Source of the DNA: Shigella phage ESh28
Strand: one strand, 5' to 3'
Sequence record: ON528738
Length of the DNA: 64,000 nt
Positions within the stretch are counted from its first letter, which is position 1. Each line of letters begins with the position of its first letter. The translations under genes were made by a program, and so were the position numbers. Below, one piece after another: positions 28,225 to 56,760 of the stretch. Under the pieces are notes generated by a model. It did not search any database, had not been told where the DNA came from, and worked only from the letters and a program-made list of their open reading frames with translations.

Positions 28225-28297
28225 TGGGAATTAGCCAAGTTGGTAAGGCATAGCACTTTGACTGCTAGATGCAAAGGTTCGAGTCCTTTATTCCCAG
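28225..28297 (+). tRNA. tRNA-Gln (anticodon UUG)
   Basis: Cloverleaf: acceptor tgggaat/attccca, anticodon stem tagca/tgcta with loop cuUUGac, T-loop TTCGAGT. Confidence 0.85.
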
Positions 28298-28298
28298 C

Positions 28299-28385
28299 GC
28301 GAGAATGGTCAAATTGGTAAAGGCACAGCACTTAAAATGCTGCGGAATGATTTCCTTGTGGGTTCGAGTCCCACTTCTCGCACCA
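28299..28385 (+). tRNA. tRNA-Leu (anticodon UAA)
   Basis: Class II tRNA: acceptor gcgagaa/ttctcgc, anticodon stem cagca/tgctg with loop cuUAAaa, long variable arm, encoded CCA. Confidence 0.85.
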
Positions 28386-28390
28386 AATTT

Positions 28391-28464
<74 letters not shown>

Positions 28465-28474
28465 ATTTAATTTA

Positions 28475-28548
28475 CTCCGTGTAGCTCAGTTTGGTAGAGC
28501 GTCTGCTTTGGGAGCAGAATGTCGCAGGTTCAAATCCTGCCGTGGAGA
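28475..28548 (+). tRNA. tRNA-Pro (anticodon UGG)
   Basis: Acceptor ctccgtg/cgtggag, anticodon stem tctgc/gcaga with loop uuUGGga, T-loop TTCAAAT. Confidence 0.8.
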
Positions 28549-28550
28549 CT

Positions 28551-28640
28551 GGAGGCGTGGCAGAGTGGTTTAATGCACCGGTCTTGAAAACCGGCAGTCG
28601 CTCCGGCGACTCATAGGTTCAAATCCTATCGCCTCCGCCA
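28551..28640 (+). tRNA. tRNA-Ser (anticodon UGA)
   Basis: Class II: acceptor ggaggcg/cgcctcc, anticodon stem ccggt/accgg with loop cuUGAaa, long variable arm, encoded CCA. Confidence 0.85.
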
Positions 28641-28645
28641 GTTTT

Positions 28646-28721
28646 GCTGATTTAGCTCAGTAGGTAGAGCAACTCACTTGTAATGAGAAGGTCGGCGGTT
28701 CGATTCCGTCAATCAGCACCA
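28646..28721 (+). tRNA. tRNA-Thr (anticodon UGU)
   Basis: Acceptor gctgatt/aatcagc, anticodon loop cuUGUaa, T-loop TTCGATT, encoded CCA. Confidence 0.85.
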
Positions 28722-28722
28722 A

Positions 28723-28797
28723 GGCCCTGTAGCTGGAAGGTTCAAGCAAGCGACTCATAATCGCCAGATGGTGGTTCAATTCCACCCAGGGCCACCA
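28723..28797 (+). tRNA. tRNA-Ile (anticodon CAU, lysidine type; Met by anticodon alone)
   Basis: Acceptor ggccctg/cagggcc, anticodon loop cuCAUaa, T-loop TTCAATT; occupies the position of T4 tRNA-Ile. Confidence 0.75.
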
Positions 28798-28809
28798 AAT
28801 TATGAATTA

Positions 28810-28896
28810 GGGGAGTTATCCCGTAGAGGTAGCGGTGTGGACTGTAAATCCATTGTCATTGCGACTCGGGTGGTTCGACTCCATCACTCCCCACCA
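28810..28896 (+). tRNA. tRNA-Tyr (anticodon GUA)
   Basis: Class II: acceptor ggggagt/actcccc, anticodon stem gtgga/tccat with loop cuGUAaa, long variable arm, T-stem ggtgg/ccatc, encoded CCA. Confidence 0.75.
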
Positions 28897-28900
28897 ATTT

Positions 28901-28975
28901 GGATGTGTAGCTCAATGGCAGAGCGATCGCCTGTTAAGCGATTGGTTATAGGTTCGAATCCTATCACGTCCGCCA
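28901..28975 (+). tRNA. tRNA-Asn (anticodon GUU)
   Basis: Acceptor ggatgtg/cacgtcc, D-stem gctc/gagc, anticodon stem atcgc/gcgat with loop cuGUUaa, T-stem atagg/cctat, encoded CCA. Confidence 0.8.
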
Positions 28976-28979
28976 AATC

Positions 28980-29055
28980 CGAGGCATAGCTCAGAAGGAA
29001 GAGCAAGGACCTTCTAAGTCCTAGGTCGTAGGTTCGATCCCTACTGCCTCGACCA
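28980..29055 (+). tRNA. tRNA-Arg (anticodon UCU)
   Basis: Acceptor cgaggca/tgcctcg, D-stem gctc/gagc, anticodon stem aggac/gtcct with loop cuUCUaa, T-loop TTCGATC, encoded CCA. Confidence 0.85.
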
Positions 29056-29401
29056 GACAAGAAGCCGGGTCGCTACCGGCAAGTCGTCGGACTGATGTTC
29101 CCTGGGTAAGGACTGGCATTAACAAATCTTTACGATCGGTTAATGCCCCCTTACATCACAGCAGAAACGGCGCACCGAATTATCGATTCGAGGAAATATC
29201 TTTGCCGTAAGCCGAGTAGCGTTTTTGACGGAACGTTCGGATATGGTCGAGATATGGCCTTTTAAAAATATTGAGTAGCGTCAACTACTTAATAACCGGG
29301 TTCGAATCCCGGCGTTTCGTACAAACACTTGCCTTAGCAGGTGGAACCCCGACAAGGTTGCCGCAAGGCTTAGCCCCGACCGAAAGGTTGGGGCTTTTTA
29401 G
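29056..29401 (+). ncRNA. GC-rich structured non-coding region, candidate stable small RNA(s) with a tRNA-like acceptor/T-arm module
   Basis: About 345 nt without a credible ORF and clearly GC-richer than flanks; about 29229-29320 has acceptor pairing cggaacg/cgtttcg and a canonical T-arm ccggg-TTCGAAT-cccgg but no clean anticodon arm; ends in a terminator. Confidence 0.4.
29372..29401 (+). terminator. rho-independent terminator closing the tRNA/stable-RNA transcription unit
   Basis: Hairpin agccccgacc-gaaa-ggttggggct followed by TTTTT. Confidence 0.7.
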
Positions 29402-33538: not shown

Positions 33539-34069
<531 letters not shown>

Positions 34070-34106
34070 AGTTGTTTACTTTCTCCTAGAATTGTGATAG
34101 TATATT
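34070..34106 (+). promoter_or_regulatory. T4 early promoter module upstream of denV
   Basis: -35 GTTTAC with a -10-like gtgaTAGTAT about 18 bp downstream. Confidence 0.5.
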
Positions 34107-34128
34107 CACAGTTACTTGGAGGGATAAA

Positions 34129-34545
34129 ATGACTCGTATTAATTTGACTTTAGTATCTGAACTTGCTGATCAACATTTAATCGCAGAATACCGTGAATTG
34201 CCGCGTGTTTTTGGTATAGTTCGTAAACATGTTGCAAATGGTAAGCGGGTTAAAGATTTTAAAATATCTTCCGAGTTTATTTTAGGTTCTGGTCATGTTA
34301 CTTTCTTTTACGATAAGTTAGAATTTTTGCGAAAGCGTCAATCAGACATTATAACGGAATGCTTAAAACGTGGGTTTAGTATAAAAGATACTGAAGTTCC
34401 TGACATCAGCGATATTCCAGTAGAATGGAAAAATGATTATAATCCATGCAAATCAGCTATTAAATTGAGTCAACAACGACTTGATGAAAAAATTTTAATG
34501 AAACCACATTGGTATAAGTATTACGGTAAAAATATTTACATTTAA
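34129..34545 (+). CDS. denV: endonuclease V (pyrimidine-dimer DNA glycosylase)
   Basis: 138 aa, [29 protein letters not shown]..., matches T4 endonuclease V as remembered. Confidence 0.95.
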
Positions 34546-34554
34546 AGGAAACCC

Positions 34555-35028
34555 ATGAAAACATATCAAGAATTTATTACTGAAGCAGCTATTAATTCTC
34601 AAATTATTGCTGAATCTTTTACTGATCTTTTGAAATTTAAAAAAGGTCAAAAAATCACTGCTGTATTGGATGATGGTACAGAAGTTGAGATGGATGTACA
34701 GGGATATAATTATGCAGTAGATGGAAAACTGTATAATAAATCTCATGCTAAATTTGATTCATTTGACGATTTTGTTAATACAGTTGAAGATGAAAAAACT
34801 CGTAGATCCATTGCAACTGGCGACGCTAAGGTTCTTATGGCACACGGTCATGAACGTATCCGCGTCAAACAGAATAAAATGGGCGAAGATAATTTCGCAT
34901 TAGTTGGTTATCAATCTGGTAAACAAACTTATGGCTATCAACGTACTGCTACCATGTATAACAAAAATGGTAAAATTGCCTTTGTAAATAGTAAAGGTTC
35001 TATTCAGTACGTTAAATCGTTCAAATAA
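34555..35028 (+). CDS. internal-protein-like protein with capsid-targeting N-terminus
   Basis: 157 aa; N-terminus MKTYQEFITEAA matches the capsid-targeting consensus; located between denV and the regB-side small genes, not at the T4 ipII/ipIII position. Confidence 0.55.
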   Translation: MKTYQEFITEAAINSQIIAESFTDLLKFKKGQKITAVLDDGTEVEMDVQGYNYAVDGKLYNKSHAKFDSFDDFVNTVEDEKTRRSIATGDAKVLMAHGHERIRVKQNKMGEDNFALVGYQSGKQTYGYQRTATMYNKNGKIAFVNSKGSIQYVKSFK

Positions 35029-35180
35029 GCAAATAAGAAATATGGGAACAAACTGGACCTCATGATTCTGTGAGGGATTCCCGCCAACCTGTAATAAGGT
35101 CGAGCCCAAGTGCGGTAATGGGTAAATACAGAAATGGACAATTCATGCGCCACGGAATGGCCCAAATTTAGAGAGAAGAA

Positions 35181-35720
35181 ATGAGAACATTTTTAACTGG
35201 TCCTTATCTATCCCTGATGAATGCTTTTACACACCATTCTGATGCTAGAGTAGAAGAAATTTGTAAAAACGATTATATCCCACCATTTGAAGACTTACTT
35301 AAGCAGTATTGCACACTTCGACTAGATGGTGGACGTCAATCCGGTAAATCAACTGCAGTAACTAATTTTGCCGCTAATTGGTTGTATGACGGTGGAACAG
35401 TTATTGTTCTTTCTAATACTTCAGCTTACGCTAAAATTTCCGCAGATAATATTAAAAAGGAATTTTCGCGTTATTCTAATGATGATATTCGATTCCGCTT
35501 ATTTACTGATTCTGTGCGCAGTTTTATTGGTAATAAAGGAAGCAAGTTCAGAGGTTTATCGCTTTCGCGAATTTTATATATAATTGATGAGCCTGTCAAA
35601 TCTCCTGATATGGATAAGATTTATAGTGTCCATATTGACACTGTACACTGCTGCTGTAATATTAAATGTTGCATTGGTGGTATTACTCGTCCACAGTTTT
35701 TCGTAATCGGAATGCAATGA
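35181..35720 (+). CDS. P-loop NTPase-like hypothetical protein
   Basis: 179 aa; Walker A-like GGRQSGKST and Walker B-like hydrophobic run ending IIDE. Confidence 0.6.
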   Translation: MRTFLTGPYLSLMNAFTHHSDARVEEICKNDYIPPFEDLLKQYCTLRLDGGRQSGKSTAVTNFAANWLYDGGTVIVLSNTSAYAKISADNIKKEFSRYSNDDIRFRLFTDSVRSFIGNKGSKFRGLSLSRILYIIDEPVKSPDMDKIYSVHIDTVHCCCNIKCCIGGITRPQFFVIGMQ

Positions 35721-36046
35721 TGACAGACACTCAGCTTTTCGAATATCTTTATTTTTCGCCAAAAACTATTAAAAATAAATTGGTGAATCATTTTGAAATT
35801 TTGGCAAATAACAACGTCTTGAGCGAATTTTATCCTAAGCAATACAAATTACAAAAAGGCGTATTCAAAGGATGCAGAGTTTTGTGTACTGCTCCTAATG
35901 CACGGTTAATGAATAAAATTCCATATTTTACCATGGAATTTATTGATGGTCCTTTTAAAGGACTAATCACACAGAGTTTAATGGCATATGATTCTGAGCC
36001 ATTTTTAATTAAAGAACAATCTTGGATAAATTTATTTTCTAATTGA
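35717..36046 (+). CDS. hypothetical protein
   Basis: 109 aa from ATG at 35717 ([13 protein letters not shown]...), ATGA overlap with the previous stop. Confidence 0.55.
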
Positions 36047-36053
36047 GGTTTAT

Positions 36054-36416
36054 ATGAAAGCATATCAAATTCTTGAAGGCACACACAAAGGTACTATTTA
36101 TTTTGAAGATGGTATTCAAGCACGAATTATTGTCTCTAAAACCTTTAAAGAGGACTCTTTTGTAGACCCAGAAATTTTCTACGGTTTGCATTCCCGTGAA
36201 ATTGAAATTGAAACACAACCTACAGTTAAAATTGAAGGTGGTCAACACCTGAACGTTAACGTTCTGCGTCGTGAAACTCTGGAAGATGCAGTTAAGCATC
36301 CGGAAAAATATCCGCAGCTGACCATCCGTGTATCCGGTTATGCAGTTCGCTTTAACTCTCTGACTCCGGAACAGCAGCGCGACGTTATCGCTCGTACCTT
36401 CACCGAGAGCTTGTAA
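36054..36416 (+). CDS. autonomous glycyl radical cofactor (GrcA/YfiD-like; T4 Y06I homolog)
   Basis: 120 aa; C-terminal half [59 protein letters not shown] carries the RVSGY glycyl-radical motif; codon usage switches to GC-rich host-like codons near 36240. Confidence 0.85.
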
Positions 36417-36637
36417 TGGCAAAGATAATTATTGAAGGTTCTGAAGATGTGCTAAATGCTTTCGCCGAGTGGTTTAGTAATTCAGGCGAACAGCAATTTA
36501 ATGAAGCATGGAACATGGGTGATATTAATGGAATTTATCCTACGACAGAAATTTCTGTTCAGGGATATGGCATTCATGAACCTATTCGTTTAGTTGAATA
36601 TGATTTATGCACTGGTGAGGAAGTCAAATATGATTGA
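36416..36637 (+). CDS. hypothetical protein
   Basis: 73-aa ORF, start abuts the previous stop. Confidence 0.55.
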   Translation: MAKIIIEGSEDVLNAFAEWFSNSGEQQFNEAWNMGDINGIYPTTEISVQGYGIHEPIRLVEYDLCTGEEVKYD

Positions 36638-36896
36638 AGATATTAAAGGTTATAAGCCACATACCGACGAAAAAATCGGTAAAGTAAATGCTATCAAAGA
36701 TGCTGAAGTTCGTTTAGGACTTATCTTTGATGCTTTATACGATGAATTTTGGGAAGCATTTGATAGCTGTGAAGATGATGAACTCGCGAAGAATTATGCT
36801 GAAAGCCTCGATCAGTTAACTATTGCTAAAACGAAACTCAAAGAAGCCAGTATGTGGGCTTGCCGTGCTGTGTTCCAACCAGAGGAAAAATACTAA
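36630..36896 (+). CDS. hypothetical protein, candidate Vs.4/Acb2-like
   Basis: 88 aa from ATG at 36630 ([17 protein letters not shown]...); sits at the vs.4 position counting from regB; assignment by position and size only. Confidence 0.5.
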
Positions 36897-37174
36897 TGGC
36901 TCAATTAAGTGCAGGGTTTGGTTATGAATATTATACTGCACCTCGTCGTGTATCTGCCGCTCCTAAGAAAATTCAAAGTCTTGATGACTTCCAAGAAGTA
37001 ATTCGTAATGCTTTCCAGGACTATGCGCGTTATCTTAAAGAAGATTCACAGGACTGCCTCGAAGAAGATGAAATTGCTTACTATGCGCAGCGTCTTGAAC
37101 AGCTCAAAAATCTACATGAGGTTCGTGCAGAAGTTTCAAAGTCTATGAATAAATTGATCAGATTTAAAGAATAA
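36896..37174 (+). CDS. hypothetical protein
   Basis: 92 aa from ATG at 36896 ([13 protein letters not shown]...), TAATG overlap with the previous stop. Confidence 0.55.
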
Positions 37175-37208
37175 CTGTTTACTTTTCCTCTTGACTGTGG
37201 TATAATTT
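37175..37208 (+). promoter_or_regulatory. sigma70-type early promoter upstream of regB
   Basis: -35 GTTTAC and extended -10 TGgTATAAT. Confidence 0.6.
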
Positions 37209-37233
37209 TTCTATCAGTTAAGAGGAGAATAAC

Positions 37234-37695
37234 ATGACTATCAATACAGAAGTTTTTATCCGTCGAAATAAGCTCCGTCGTCACTTTGAGTCGGAGTTTC
37301 GTCAAATTAACAATGAGATTCGTGAGGCATCAAAAGCAGCAGGGGTCTCATCGTTTCATCTAAAATATTCTCAGCATCTTCTTGATCGTGCAATTCAACG
37401 GGAGATTGATGAGACATATGTTTTTGAATTATTCCATAAAATAAAAGACCATGTTTTAGAAGTTAATGAATTCCTGAGTATGCCTCCACGTCCTGACATT
37501 GACGAGGATTTTATTGATGGGGTTGAATATCGTCCTGGACGTTTAGAAATCACAGATGGAAATCTTTGGCTTGGATTTACAGTTTGTAAACCTAATGCGA
37601 AGTTCAAAGACCCGTCACTTCAGTGCAGGATGGCAATTATCAATAGTCGCCGTTTACCAGGAAAGGCTTCTAAAGCAGTAATTAAAACTCAATGA
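37234..37695 (+). CDS. regB: endoribonuclease RegB
   Basis: 153 aa, MTINTEVFIRRNKLRRHFESEFRQINNEIREASK..., matches T4 RegB as remembered. Confidence 0.93.
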   Translation: MTINTEVFIRRNKLRRHFESEFRQINNEIREASKAAGVSSFHLKYSQHLLDRAIQREIDETYVFELFHKIKDHVLEVNEFLSMPPRPDIDEDFIDGVEYRPGRLEITDGNLWLGFTVCKPNAKFKDPSLQCRMAIINSRRLPGKASKAVIKTQ

Positions 37696-37702
37696 GGTAA
37701 GC

Positions 37703-38248
37703 ATGAGAAAAGCACTACTCGCTGGTCTATTGGCCATTTCAATGATGGCACATAGCTCCGAGCATACTTTCAGTAATGTCCAACTCGATAACATGCGTTA
37801 CGCGTATCAATTCGGGGAACAATTTTCTAAGGATGGAAAATATAAAACACACAAAAATATCCACAAGAGCGGATTAGGTCATATAATGGCTGCTATTTTA
37901 TGGCAAGAAAGCTCTGGCGGAGTTAATTTAAAATCTAAACCAAAGCATCACGCCTACGGAATGTTCCAAAATTATTTGCCTACTATGCGAGCAAGAGTTA
38001 AGGAACTTGGTTATAATATGACCGATGCTGAAATAAAAAGAATGTTGAATAAACGATCCAATTCAGCTTCCTGGGCGTACATTGAACTTTCTTATTGGTT
38101 AAATATACATAAGGGCGATATAAGAAAAGCAATATCCTCTTATAATTCGGGATGGAATGTTAAAGCTGGTTCTAAATATGCTTCTGAAGTCCTAGAAAAG
38201 GCTAATTACCTTAAAAATAATAAACTTTTGGAAATAGTAAATGACTAA
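37703..38248 (+). CDS. secreted lytic-transglycosylase-like protein
   Basis: 181 aa; N-terminal signal peptide (MRKALLAGLLAISMMAHS); SLT-like motifs WQESSGG, GMFQ, SYNSG. Confidence 0.6.
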   Translation: MRKALLAGLLAISMMAHSSEHTFSNVQLDNMRYAYQFGEQFSKDGKYKTHKNIHKSGLGHIMAAILWQESSGGVNLKSKPKHHAYGMFQNYLPTMRARVKELGYNMTDAEIKRMLNKRSNSASWAYIELSYWLNIHKGDIRKAISSYNSGWNVKAGSKYASEVLEKANYLKNNKLLEIVND

Positions 38249-54005: not shown

Positions 54006-54479
54006 ATGTTATTGACTGGCAAATTATATAAAGAAGAAAAACAGAAATTTTATGATGCACAAAACGGTAAATGCTTAATTTGCCAACGAGAACTAAATCC
54101 TGATGTTCAAGCTAATCACCTCGACCATGACCATGAATTAAATGGACCAAAAGCAGGAAAGGTACGTGGATTGCTTTGTAATCTCTGCAATGCCGCAGAA
54201 GGTCAAATGAAACATAAATTTAATCGTTCTGGCTTAAAGGGGCAAGGTGTTGATTATCTTGAATGGTTAGAAAATTTACTTACTTATTTAAAATCCGATT
54301 ACACCCAAAATAATATTCACCCTAACTTTGTTGGAGATAAATCAAAGGAATTTTCTCGTTTAGGAAAAGAGGAAATGATGGCCGAGATGCTTCAAAGAGG
54401 ATTTGAATATAATGAATCTGACACCAAAACACAATTAATAGCTTCATTTAAGAAGCAGCTTAGAAAGAGTTTAAAATGA
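54006..54479 (+). CDS. 49: endonuclease VII (Holliday junction resolvase)
   Basis: 157 aa, MLLTGKLYKEEKQKFYDAQNGKCLICQRELNPDVQANHLDHDHELNGP...; matches T4 gp49 as remembered. Confidence 0.95.
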   Translation: MLLTGKLYKEEKQKFYDAQNGKCLICQRELNPDVQANHLDHDHELNGPKAGKVRGLLCNLCNAAEGQMKHKFNRSGLKGQGVDYLEWLENLLTYLKSDYTQNNIHPNFVGDKSKEFSRLGKEEMMAEMLQRGFEYNESDTKTQLIASFKKQLRKSLK

Positions 54480-56293
54480 CAATTGAAAAAGAAATTGAAG
54501 GATTGATTCATAAAACTAATAAAGACCTTTTGAACGAGAATGCTAATAAAGATTCTCGTGTTTTTCCAACTCAACGGGACCTTATGGCTGGTATTGTGTC
54601 TAAACACATTGCCAAAAATATGGTCCCGTCTTTTATTATGAAAGCGCATGAAAGCGGAATTATTCATTTCCATGATATTGATTATTCCCCTGCTCTTCCA
54701 TTTACTAATTGTTGTTTAGTAGATTTAAAAGGAATGCTTGAAAACGGATTTAAGCTAGGTAATGCACAGATTGAAACTCCTAAATCAATTGGAGTTGCTA
54801 CTGCAATTATGGCACAAATTACTGCGCAAGTTGCTTCTCACCAATACGGCGGAACGACTTTTGCGAATGTAGATAAAGTACTTTCTCCTTATGTTAAACG
54901 CACCTATGCAAAACATATTGAGGATGCAGAAAAATGGCAAATCGCTGATGCGTTGAATTATGCTCAATCTAAAACAGAAAAAGATGTATACGATGCATTC
55001 CAAGCTTATGAATATGAAGTAAATACTCTCTTTAGTTCAAACGGACAGACTCCTTTTGTAACAATTACATTTGGTACGGGAACTGACTGGACTGAACGAA
55101 TGATTCAGAAAGCAATTCTGAAAAATCGTATTAAAGGTCTTGGTCGTGATGGGATAACTCCTATTTTCCCTAAGCTTGTTATGTTCGTCGAAGAAGGTGT
55201 TAATCTTTATAAAGACGATCCGAACTATGATATTAAGCAACTTGCTCTAGAGTGCGCAAGTAAAAGAATGTATCCTGATATTATTTCAGCTAAGAACAAT
55301 AAAGCTATCACTGGCTCATCTATTCCTGTTTCTCCAATGGGTTGTCGTAGTTTCTTGAGCGTGTGGAAAGATTCGACTGGTAATGAAATTCTTGATGGAC
55401 GTAATAATCTTGGCGTTGTAACACTGAATCTTCCTCGTATTGCGTTAGATTCTTATATTGGAACACAGTTCAATGAACAGAAATTTATCGAATTGTTCAA
55501 TGAACGAATGGATTTATGTTTTGAAGCTTTGATGTGTAGAATTAGTTCCTTAAAAGGAGTTAAAGCGACTGTTGCTCCTATTCTTTACCAAGAAGGTGCA
55601 TTTGGGGTTCGTCTTAAACCTGATGACGATATAATTGAGTTATTTAAAAACGGTAGAAGTTCAGTGTCTCTAGGATACATTGGTATTCACGAATTGAATA
55701 TTCTTGTCGGTCGTGATATTGGACAGGAAATTTTAACTAAAATGAATGCTCGTCTTAAACGGTGGACTGAAAGAACCGGATTTGCTTTTAGCTTGTATTC
55801 TACTCCTGCTGAAAACCTTTGTTATCGCTTCTGTAAACTTGATACAGAAAAATACGGAAGTGTAAAGGATGTTACTGATAAAGGATGGTACACTAATAGT
55901 TTCCATGTTTCAGTAGAAGAAAATATTACTCCGTTTGAAAAGATTTCTCGTGAAGCGCCATATCATTTCATTGCGACAGGTGGTCACATTTCTTATGTTG
56001 AACTTCCTGATATGAAAAATAATCTAAAAGGTCTTGAGGCCGTATGGGATTATGCTGCACAGCATTTAGATTATTTTGGTGTTAACATGCCAGTAGATAA
56101 GTGTTTTACATGCGGAAGTACCCATGAAATGACTCCTACTGAAAACGGATTTGTTTGTTCTATTTGTGGAGAAACTGATCCTAAAAAGATGAATACCATA
56201 AGAAGAACATGTGGTTATTTGGGAAATCCGAACGAGCGCGGATTTAATCTAGGTAAAAATAAAGAAATCATGCATAGGGTTAAACACCAATGA
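54476..56293 (+). CDS. nrdD: anaerobic ribonucleoside-triphosphate reductase NrdD
   Basis: 605 aa, uninterrupted; C-terminal Zn ribbon and glycyl radical motif RRTCGYLG. Confidence 0.93.
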   Translation: MTIEKEIEGLIHKTNKDLLNENANKDSRVFPTQRDLMAGIVSKHIAKNMVPSFIMKAHESGIIHFHDIDYSPALPFTNCCLVDLKGMLENGFKLGNAQIETPKSIGVATAIMAQITAQVASHQYGGTTFANVDKVLSPYVKRTYAKHIEDAEKWQIADALNYAQSKTEKDVYDAFQAYEYEVNTLFSSNGQTPFVTITFGTGTDWTERMIQKAILKNRIKGLGRDGITPIFPKLVMFVEEGVNLYKDDPNYDIKQLALECASKRMYPDIISAKNNKAITGSSIPVSPMGCRSFLSVWKDSTGNEILDGRNNLGVVTLNLPRIALDSYIGTQFNEQKFIELFNERMDLCFEALMCRISSLKGVKATVAPILYQEGAFGVRLKPDDDIIELFKNGRSSVSLGYIGIHELNILVGRDIGQEILTKMNARLKRWTERTGFAFSLYSTPAENLCYRFCKLDTEKYGSVKDVTDKGWYTNSFHVSVEENITPFEKISREAPYHFIATGGHISYVELPDMKNNLKGLEAVWDYAAQHLDYFGVNMPVDKCFTCGSTHEMTPTENGFVCSICGETDPKKMNTIRRTCGYLGNPNERGFNLGKNKEIMHRVKHQ

Positions 56294-56760
56294 ATTATGA
56301 TAGATTTTATCCTTGTGATTTTGTGAATGGCCCTGGTTGCAGGGTCGTTCTTTTCGTCACAGGTTGTTTGCATAAATGCGAAGGGTGTTATAATAAATCA
56401 ACATGGAATGCTAGAAATGGTATTCCATTCACTGGAGAGACACTAGAACAATTAATTGAATGTTTGAATAATGATTATATAGAAGGATTAACTATAACCG
56501 GAGGAGACCCTCTCTATCCTGACAATCGAGATGTTATTCATTGCATTGTTCAAACAGTAAAAAATCTTTATCCCAATAAAAGCATTTGGTTGTGGACAGG
56601 ATATAAGTTTGAAGATATTAAACAACTAGAAATGCTTAAATATGTTGATGTTATTATTGATGGGAAGTATGAGAAAAATCTTCCGACTAAAAAGCTGTGG
56701 CGAGGATCAGATAATCAGCGACTTTGGTCAAATACCGATGGGGTGTGGAAACATGATTAA
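56290..56760 (+). CDS. nrdG: anaerobic RNR activating protein NrdG (radical SAM)
   Basis: 156 aa; radical-SAM cluster CLHKCEGC; ATGA overlap with nrdD. Confidence 0.9.
   Translation: MNYDRFYPCDFVNGPGCRVVLFVTGCLHKCEGCYNKSTWNARNGIPFTGETLEQLIECLNNDYIEGLTITGGDPLYPDNRDVIHCIVQTVKNLYPNKSIWLWTGYKFEDIKQLEMLKYVDVIIDGKYEKNLPTKKLWRGSDNQRLWSNTDGVWKHD

Follow-up and report, generated by a model that had tools for sequence, protein, structure and literature searches.

The described systems to which the locus reported here is closest are: the vs.6 gene of phage T4 and its product Y06I; the E. coli GrcA (YfiD) protein (PDB 6owr; family model TIGR04365); the pyruvate formate-lyases (PFL) PflB and TdcE, which have the same C-terminal glycyl-radical domain; and the psbA genes of marine T4-like cyanomyoviruses. 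As far as the account in PMC8683613 of Wagner et al. (2001) extends, Y06I, like GrcA, acquires a glycyl radical from the PFL activase and then restores PFL that has been cleaved by oxygen, the repair target being PflB cut at Gly734. This rescue by the vs.6 protein is already published, and the biochemical role is not new. The gene was present in all six T4-like genomes compared by Nolan et al. (2006), and a link to nucleotide metabolism was suggested for it (PMC1524935). In the psbA genes of the cyanomyoviruses a patchy host-like GC content is seen, which has been explained by recombination of the phage copy with that of the host (PMC3900582). As a host-derived metabolic gene of a T4-like phage with patches of host-like composition, psbA is the closest analogue of the gene we describe.

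The window, i.e. the whole stretch of 64,000 nucleotides from Shigella phage ESh28 (ON528738) that was analysed, belongs to a T4-type phage (Tequatrovirus), with the best database matches being Escherichia and Shigella T-even phages at ~98%. T4 vs.8 through vs.1 align with 35040-37914 at 95.6% DNA identity and the gene neighbourhood is the same in both phages (denV, vs.8, vs.7, vs.6, vs.5 ... regB, vs.1). Between vs.7 and vs.5, with unrelated phage ORFs on both sides, lies an ORF (Table 1) with 97.5% protein identity to T4 vs.6 (UniProt Y06I_BPT4), which agrees with the naming of the gene as Y06I in the earlier note. T4 vs.6 differs from it in three amino acids and has CAT (His) where the window has CGT. 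At its 3' end the gene runs into the next one in a TAATG, where the last base of the vs.6 stop codon is the first base of the ATG of the next ORF (36416). Promoter and terminator scans of 34000-37300 returned counts no higher than in shuffled sequence. The terminator scan flagged, on the minus strand, a short inverted repeat (AGGTG GTCAA CACCT, 36236-36250) located within the tract described below, 4 bases from its 5' junction; it is also present in E. coli grcA and is probably a coincidence. Further upstream, the segment 34419-35039 between denV and vs.8, with an ORF of 157 aa (34555-35028), is without counterpart in the T4 reference, where vs.8 directly follows denV; over the first 294 bases of denV identity to T4 drops to 78.6%, as against 95.6% in the rest of the region.

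Table 1. Features of vs.6 and of the anaerobic ribonucleotide reductase genes in the window.
Feature	Position	Strand	Basis
Shine-Dalgarno-like GAGG, 5 bases before the vs.6 ATG (putative)	36045..36048	+	read from the sequence
Complete CDS, phage GrcA homologue (T4 vs.6 / Y06I), 120 aa + stop	36054..36416	+	ORF, homology
Phage-type 5' segment: diverged GrcA N-terminal domain, residues 1-59 and first base of codon 60	36054..36231	+	
Host-derived tract (putative conversion tract) = E. coli grcA positions 200-368; encodes the glycyl-radical domain	36232..36400	+	169-base exact match
Gly95 codon, radical residue in RVSGYAV	36336..36338	+	computed motif position; alignment to PflB 697-759; role from literature
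Phage-type 3' end with four synonymous differences from E. coli, and stop codon	36401..36416	+	
NrdD, anaerobic ribonucleotide reductase	54476..56293	+	Pfam NRDD 1.9e-171, Gly_radical 1.2e-25
NrdG, radical-SAM activase of NrdD	56290..56760	+	Pfam Fer4_12 2.3e-48, Radical_SAM 2.2e-07

The encoded protein has the structural features of the GrcA family: a glycyl-radical domain with RVSGYAV and the radical glycine; a small stand-alone architecture (about 14 kDa), as in E. coli GrcA, from a 120-aa ORF with its own start and Shine-Dalgarno-like site; and a GrcA-specific N-terminal domain recovered by both hhalign and BLASTP. The C-terminal GrcA/YfiD module that had been recognized in the sequence is recovered by Pfam (Gly_radical, 2.1e-18), and residues 61-120 are identical to E. 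coli GrcA. By motif position, Gly95 corresponds to Gly102 of E. coli GrcA, and its equivalent in PflB is Gly734 (PMC8683613); residues 58-120 align with PflB 697-759 (E 4.4e-26). The full-length protein matches PDB 6owr with E 4.8e-42 and TIGR04365 with 155.4 bits, which falls short of the NCBIfam equivalog cut-off of 170 bits (E. coli GrcA: 234). This shortfall results from the diverged N-terminal domain, and by the curated rule the phage protein is a GrcA homologue and not an equivalog. As compared to E. coli GrcA, the phage N-terminal domain is 7 residues shorter and only ~26-33% identical. The genomic contexts are also distinct: E. coli grcA sits between ung and eamB, and the phage gene is found in an early-gene region of a lytic phage.

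An abrupt switch from AT-rich to GC-rich codons within the gene had been noted, and the windowed GC3 and codon analysis bears this out: from 36054-36239 to 36240-36416 the GC content rises from 0.333 to 0.503 and GC3 from 0.194 to 0.492. The switch is real; its position was given as about 36240, which is slightly too far downstream, as exact identity to E. coli grcA already starts at 36232. The first 178 bases of the gene (36054-36231) accordingly have a GC of 0.33 and a GC3 of 0.19-0.20. At 36240, the GC of a 177-base window exceeds the 64-kb mean by 3.3 sd, and only the tRNA cluster at 28428-29395 is equally GC-rich. Relative to 57-codon windows drawn from 50 ORFs of the same phage, the tract falls in the top 1.1% by GC3 and in the bottom 1.6% by fit to the phage codon usage, and the GC3 jump between adjacent windows at the tract is in the top 0.1%. 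CTG, CGT/CGC, CCG and CAG are used 5, 6, 3 and 3 times in the tract versus 0, 1, 0 and 0 times in the 5' part.

The tRNA genes of the window number 10 in 28225-29055 (Gln, Leu, Gly, Pro, Ser, Thr, Met-CAU, Tyr, Asn and Arg). T4 has 8 tRNA genes, and Tyr and Asn thus look like extras of the window cluster. For the tRNA-Tyr stretch (28807-28899), a plasmid record of E. coli O111:H8 has a tRNA-Tyr that matches at 91.5% identity; in 263 further E. coli records the best match reaches only 80-90%.

The GC-rich part of vs.6 is derived from the host grcA gene, as the earlier note had proposed: the final 183 bases of the gene match grcA of all 5426 complete E. coli genomes at 97.3-97.8% identity, versus 78% expected for an old phage gene with the same protein product, and the longest exact match, to grcA of E. 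coli SK1144, spans 169 bases (36232-36400). The K-12 grcA has one mismatch to the tract, at 36272, a site that is polymorphic within E. coli. Mismatches to E. coli grcA are distributed in an all-or-none fashion, with 75 in 151 aligned bases of the 5' part versus 0 in the 169 of the tract (Fisher p = 7e-31). The nearest of 83 bacterial grcA sequences (81 loci) is that of E. coli (178/183), followed by Trabulsiella (167) and Citrobacter (166), with more distant Enterobacterales and Pasteurellaceae at about 139-160 of 183. In a megablast search of the whole 64-kb window against all E. coli genomes the tract was the sole chromosomal match, the only other match being tRNA-Tyr-like and on plasmid records. 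In the bacterial genes the 5'/3' identities are 99%/99% in Escherichia sp., 84%/84% in Salmonella and 84%/88% in K. pneumoniae. Both halves of the bacterial gene thus diverge with taxonomic distance, though not always equally, which suggests vertical descent of the host gene, with the phage as recipient. Hence, the tract is host-derived, the transfer was from host to phage, and both of its junctions are located. The genes of the larger glycyl-radical enzymes are not the donors: the best tdcE match, among the matches listed for E. coli genomes, is 75% identical to the tract versus 97-98% for grcA, and pflB reaches ~83%, as measured against the Klebsiella-phage tract.

The identity of the tract could in principle reflect selection on the DNA or RNA sequence itself, such as codon optimisation or an RNA element, acting alike on phage and host without any transfer. 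The tract codons are indeed typical of highly expressed enterobacterial genes; however, the identity is species-specific. The identical 60-residue protein is encoded in many enterobacterial genera, and over the tract E. coli matches at 167-168 of 168 positions versus at most 154 for the other genera with this same protein. Among other E. coli phages, Krischvirus and T5-like ones have similar proteins encoded at a tract DNA identity of 72-81%, and Klebsiella phages match Klebsiella instead. Protein conservation is likewise an insufficient cause: when the same protein was rewritten 100,000 times with the codon usage of this phage, the identity to the E. coli tract was 77.6% +/- 2.3% (130 +/- 3.8), with a maximum of 146/168, as against the observed 167/168 (z = 9.5). 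Identity without transfer is, therefore, a very improbable reading.

An artefact, through contamination by host DNA or chimeric assembly, would account for the identity with the propagation host and for nothing beyond it. The same mosaic is found in ~500 independently sequenced phage genomes, including the reference T4, and in metagenome-derived viral contigs, and in the window the reading frame is continuous and phage sequence is present on both flanks. We accordingly give this explanation next to no credence.

The comparison with psbA can now be made more specific. In vs.6 the host-like sequence is a single block, with ends resolved to the base, which is 100% identical to a living host species and covers exactly one protein domain. 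It is found in hmC-containing T-even coliphages, and the product is a repair cofactor of 120 aa as opposed to a photosystem core protein.

The earlier note had seen in this gene the capture of a host domain by fusion onto a phage-derived N-terminus. While the host origin of the 3' half stands, the fusion does not. A fusion would have been the outcome of illegitimate recombination, joining the host domain to an unrelated leader invented by the phage, and this would fit both the sharp composition switch at the domain boundary and the lack of a Pfam or NCBIfam match to the N-terminal 60 aa taken alone. Homology of this region is seen only in pairwise and profile-profile comparisons; in these, however, it aligns with the N-terminal domain of GrcA. 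Pairwise BLASTP recovers residues 28-67 of E. coli GrcA at 33% identity (E 4e-6), and hhalign of a profile of ten phage N-terminal halves against the bacterial N-terminal profile gives 96.8% (E 2.4e-10; 61/61 columns; 26% identity). The TIGR04365 and PDB 6owr alignments also extend across the junction, from phage residue 20-22 to 120. At the other end, the last 16 bases of the gene are again of phage type, with synonymous differences from E. coli at 36401, 36404, 36407 and 36411, and the TTC and GAG states seen there are common to Jiaodavirus and other phage genera; 3' of the vs.6 stop codon no host sequence was found.

Furthermore, full-length homologues of vs.6 are present in 1588 phage records (T4-like genera, T5-like phages, jumbo Yersinia and Erwinia phages and Aeromonas phages), and those of distant T4-like, T5-like and jumbo phages have phage-type 3' halves, which also speaks against a fusion. 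In Karamvirus PG7, Slopekvirus, Krischvirus, T5-like and Aeromonas phages the tract is only 70-86% identical to any of the 83 bacterial grcA sequences, and its codons are much less host-like. The unconverted state is thus kept in related phages, and Enterobacter phage CYPEBC003, in which the identical domain protein is encoded at 85% DNA identity, illustrates the appearance of an old phage copy. Given these observations, we regard a fusion to an unrelated leader as very unlikely. Sequence homologous to grcA and of the phage lineage lies on both sides of the patch, which is the signature of gene conversion and not of illegitimate fusion. Very likely, then, the host sequence is an internal patch that replaced the homologous part of a pre-existing phage grcA homologue, and the gene is to be read as an old phage homologue with a refreshed domain.

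The homology of both halves to grcA would also be consistent with a recent acquisition of the whole gene from the host, followed by rapid divergence of just the 5' half toward phage composition. This would need 75 of 151 bases in the 5' part to have changed against no change in the adjoining 169, and mutation cannot stop at a single-base boundary; moreover, the 5' half is common to several phage genera, with graded divergence. A recent whole-gene capture is, hence, highly improbable.

The replacement can be traced across the T-even phages. An identity of 95-99% over the tract is seen in 496 phage records when E. coli grcA is the reference, and in 106 Klebsiella-phage records when the K. pneumoniae tract is. 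The pattern is reciprocal: a phage tract matches the species that is its own host at 95-99%, and the other of the two at 86-89%, and the 86-88% between E. coli phages and the K. pneumoniae tract equals the distance between the bacterial E. coli and Klebsiella genes. T4, other Tequatroviruses and Mosigviruses have the E. coli-type tract with one common 5' junction, T4 itself showing the same mosaic as the window. An apparently different 5' junction in Mosigvirus RPN187, CCU7 and MM02 (blastn match to grcA 155-384) was rejected, as codon alignment shows it to be a blastn extension through weak similarity, with the junction unchanged. Jiaodavirus, the sister genus infecting Klebsiella, has a like architecture with a Klebsiella-type tract (LLDAVEH; GC3 0.55-0.62). 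The Jiaodavirus-like contig IMGVR_UViG_2974754850_000001 (L129) departs from K. pneumoniae grcA at 1 internal position of the tract and has the common 5' junction and a phage-type 3' end. At ~301-659 of that contig, the 5' half of the gene has a one-base deletion relative to KP179 and KMI13, which is either a frameshift or a sequence error. From these patterns it is certain that there were at least two donors: E. coli for Tequatrovirus and Mosigvirus, and Klebsiella for Jiaodavirus.

How many exchanges took place is less clear-cut. The 5' halves of Tequatrovirus and Mosigvirus are 10-12% apart (~20% of synonymous codons changed), their tracts only 0.6-1.8%; the tract thus postdates the separation of the two genera. 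One account posits a single capture each from E. coli and from Klebsiella, which spread by phage-to-phage recombination and changed thereafter by mutation, with no continuing exchange with hosts. The common 5' junction of all T-even tracts, the free recombination of T-even phages with one another and the graded tract variants within phages are in line with it. So is the retention of the E. coli-type tract by Tequatroviruses isolated on Yersinia or Salmonella, which indicates that the tracking follows the history of the lineage and not always the isolation host. Against it stand several observations: a 168/168 match to present-day E. coli is seen in phages of both genera (Mosigvirus RPN187 and the IMG/VR contigs L105, L106 and L109) despite the 10-12% difference in their 5' halves; the 3' limit of E. 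coli identity varies, falling at grcA position 368 in the window, ~374 in Mosigvirus and ~377 in T4, where the identical stretch thus extends ~9 bases further 3' than in the window; both E. coli alleles at grcA position 240 are present among the phages; and the Jiaodaviruses KP179 and KMI13 differ at 2 of 177 bases in the 5' half and at 10 of 171 in the tract. We consider the single-capture account a possible but rather doubtful one. Repeated host-phage exchange at vs.6 has probably occurred, and exchange may well be ongoing. As to the stronger proposal, that vs.6 is a standing hotspot of host-to-phage conversion in the strictly lytic T-even phages, re-copied from whichever enterobacterium the lineage grows on, we see the chances as evenly poised. 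Part of the pattern between genera could also have come from phage-to-phage recombination after one capture per host.

The tract is not always refreshed, as is indicated by the E. coli phages Killian and MM02, whose tracts are 4-6% diverged with no bacterial match. No other bacterial donor was identified for the 10 synonymous tract differences of Killian: a 52-base Killian-specific probe had no match in metagenome contigs, and a graded series of variants is found in phages. Divergence inside the phage lineage is the simplest reading of the Killian tract.

Some of the records encountered in these comparisons are of note in their own right. A second Klebsiella reference, K. aerogenes, was left out of the comparisons on account of a frameshifted grcA, the frameshift being in the deposited sequence of strain NCTC10006. 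The records labelled 'plasmid 2' of K. aerogenes NCTC10006 (L098) and 'plasmid unnamed2' of K. pneumoniae strain 176 (L097; 5.37 Mb) are chromosome-sized or chromosome-derived. Among the IMG/VR contigs, the short L174-L180 and L182 have a GC-rich ORF (GC3 0.50-0.61) that resembles the C-terminus of a complete pyruvate formate-lyase rather than a GrcA-type gene, and in L132 there is a full GrcA of bacterial type, nearest to that of Yersinia; such contigs may be host fragments or prophage-adjacent DNA in a viral collection.

With regard to mechanism, the mosaic points to recombination (gene conversion) between the phage copy and the host gene. In the ancestral state the phage group would have inherited a full-length grcA copy with phage-like codons. 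A fragment of host DNA might then pair with the phage copy across the conserved region coding for the domain, probably ~75-86% identical before conversion, and the paired region could be copied into the phage genome via the recombination-dependent replication of the phage. The 5' limit of the exchange would be set where phage and host are too different to pair, and the 3' limit would fall a few codons before the stop. A first patch would lift the identity to the host to near 100%, which would make the next exchange easier. In T4 infection host DNA is broken down and the phage uses modified cytosine; host-to-phage exchange is, therefore, expected to be rare, which counts against the proposal. 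Any selective advantage of the conversion would be hypothetical, as phages with unconverted tracts encode almost the same protein.

To our knowledge, T4, the textbook lytic phage, has essentially no DNA in common with its host. A 169-base E. coli block in a T4-type genome, with its Klebsiella counterpart in Klebsiella phages, thus provides a clean natural marker of a process not easily observed, the copying of host sequence into a virulent phage. It also indicates that nucleotide-level matches to the host in phage genomes need not mean a prophage or contamination. If the hotspot reading holds, host chromosomal DNA would act as a recombination template in T4-type infection despite its breakdown and the cytosine modification, and the tract would be a readable record of the recent host species of a phage lineage. 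The mosaic is clean enough for experimental use and sits in a model group of lytic phages. In the literature searched, neither the DNA-level mosaic of vs.6 nor the exact identity to E. coli nor the reciprocal E. coli/Klebsiella pattern is described; earlier mention is possible, as Wagner et al. (2001), Miller et al. (2003) and Bowman et al. (2019) were outside the search.

The product of the converted gene is unchanged in kind. Since the protein of the window has every one of residues 61-120, Gly95 among them, in common with E. coli GrcA, it would be expected to act in the same way: the host activase PflA would install the radical on Gly95, and the small protein would dock on oxygen-cleaved PFL and bring back its activity. 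Formate is the reductant of class III ribonucleotide reductase. The presence of NrdD and its activase NrdG in the same window, to which the earlier note had drawn attention, is upheld by the Pfam matches (Table 1). The phage may benefit from active PFL: if the enzyme were kept running during infection, the supply of acetyl-CoA and formate would be sustained, and the formate could be used by the phage NrdD. In phages with other gene orders, the vs.6 homologue of the T5-like phage DT57C (L089) follows two tRNA genes, and those of the Aeromonas phages Ah1 (L092, 301-684) and Aswh_1 (L093, 257-616) are found directly downstream of nrdG, beside nrdC or nrdH. This linkage to nrdG fits a role tied to anaerobic nucleotide synthesis.
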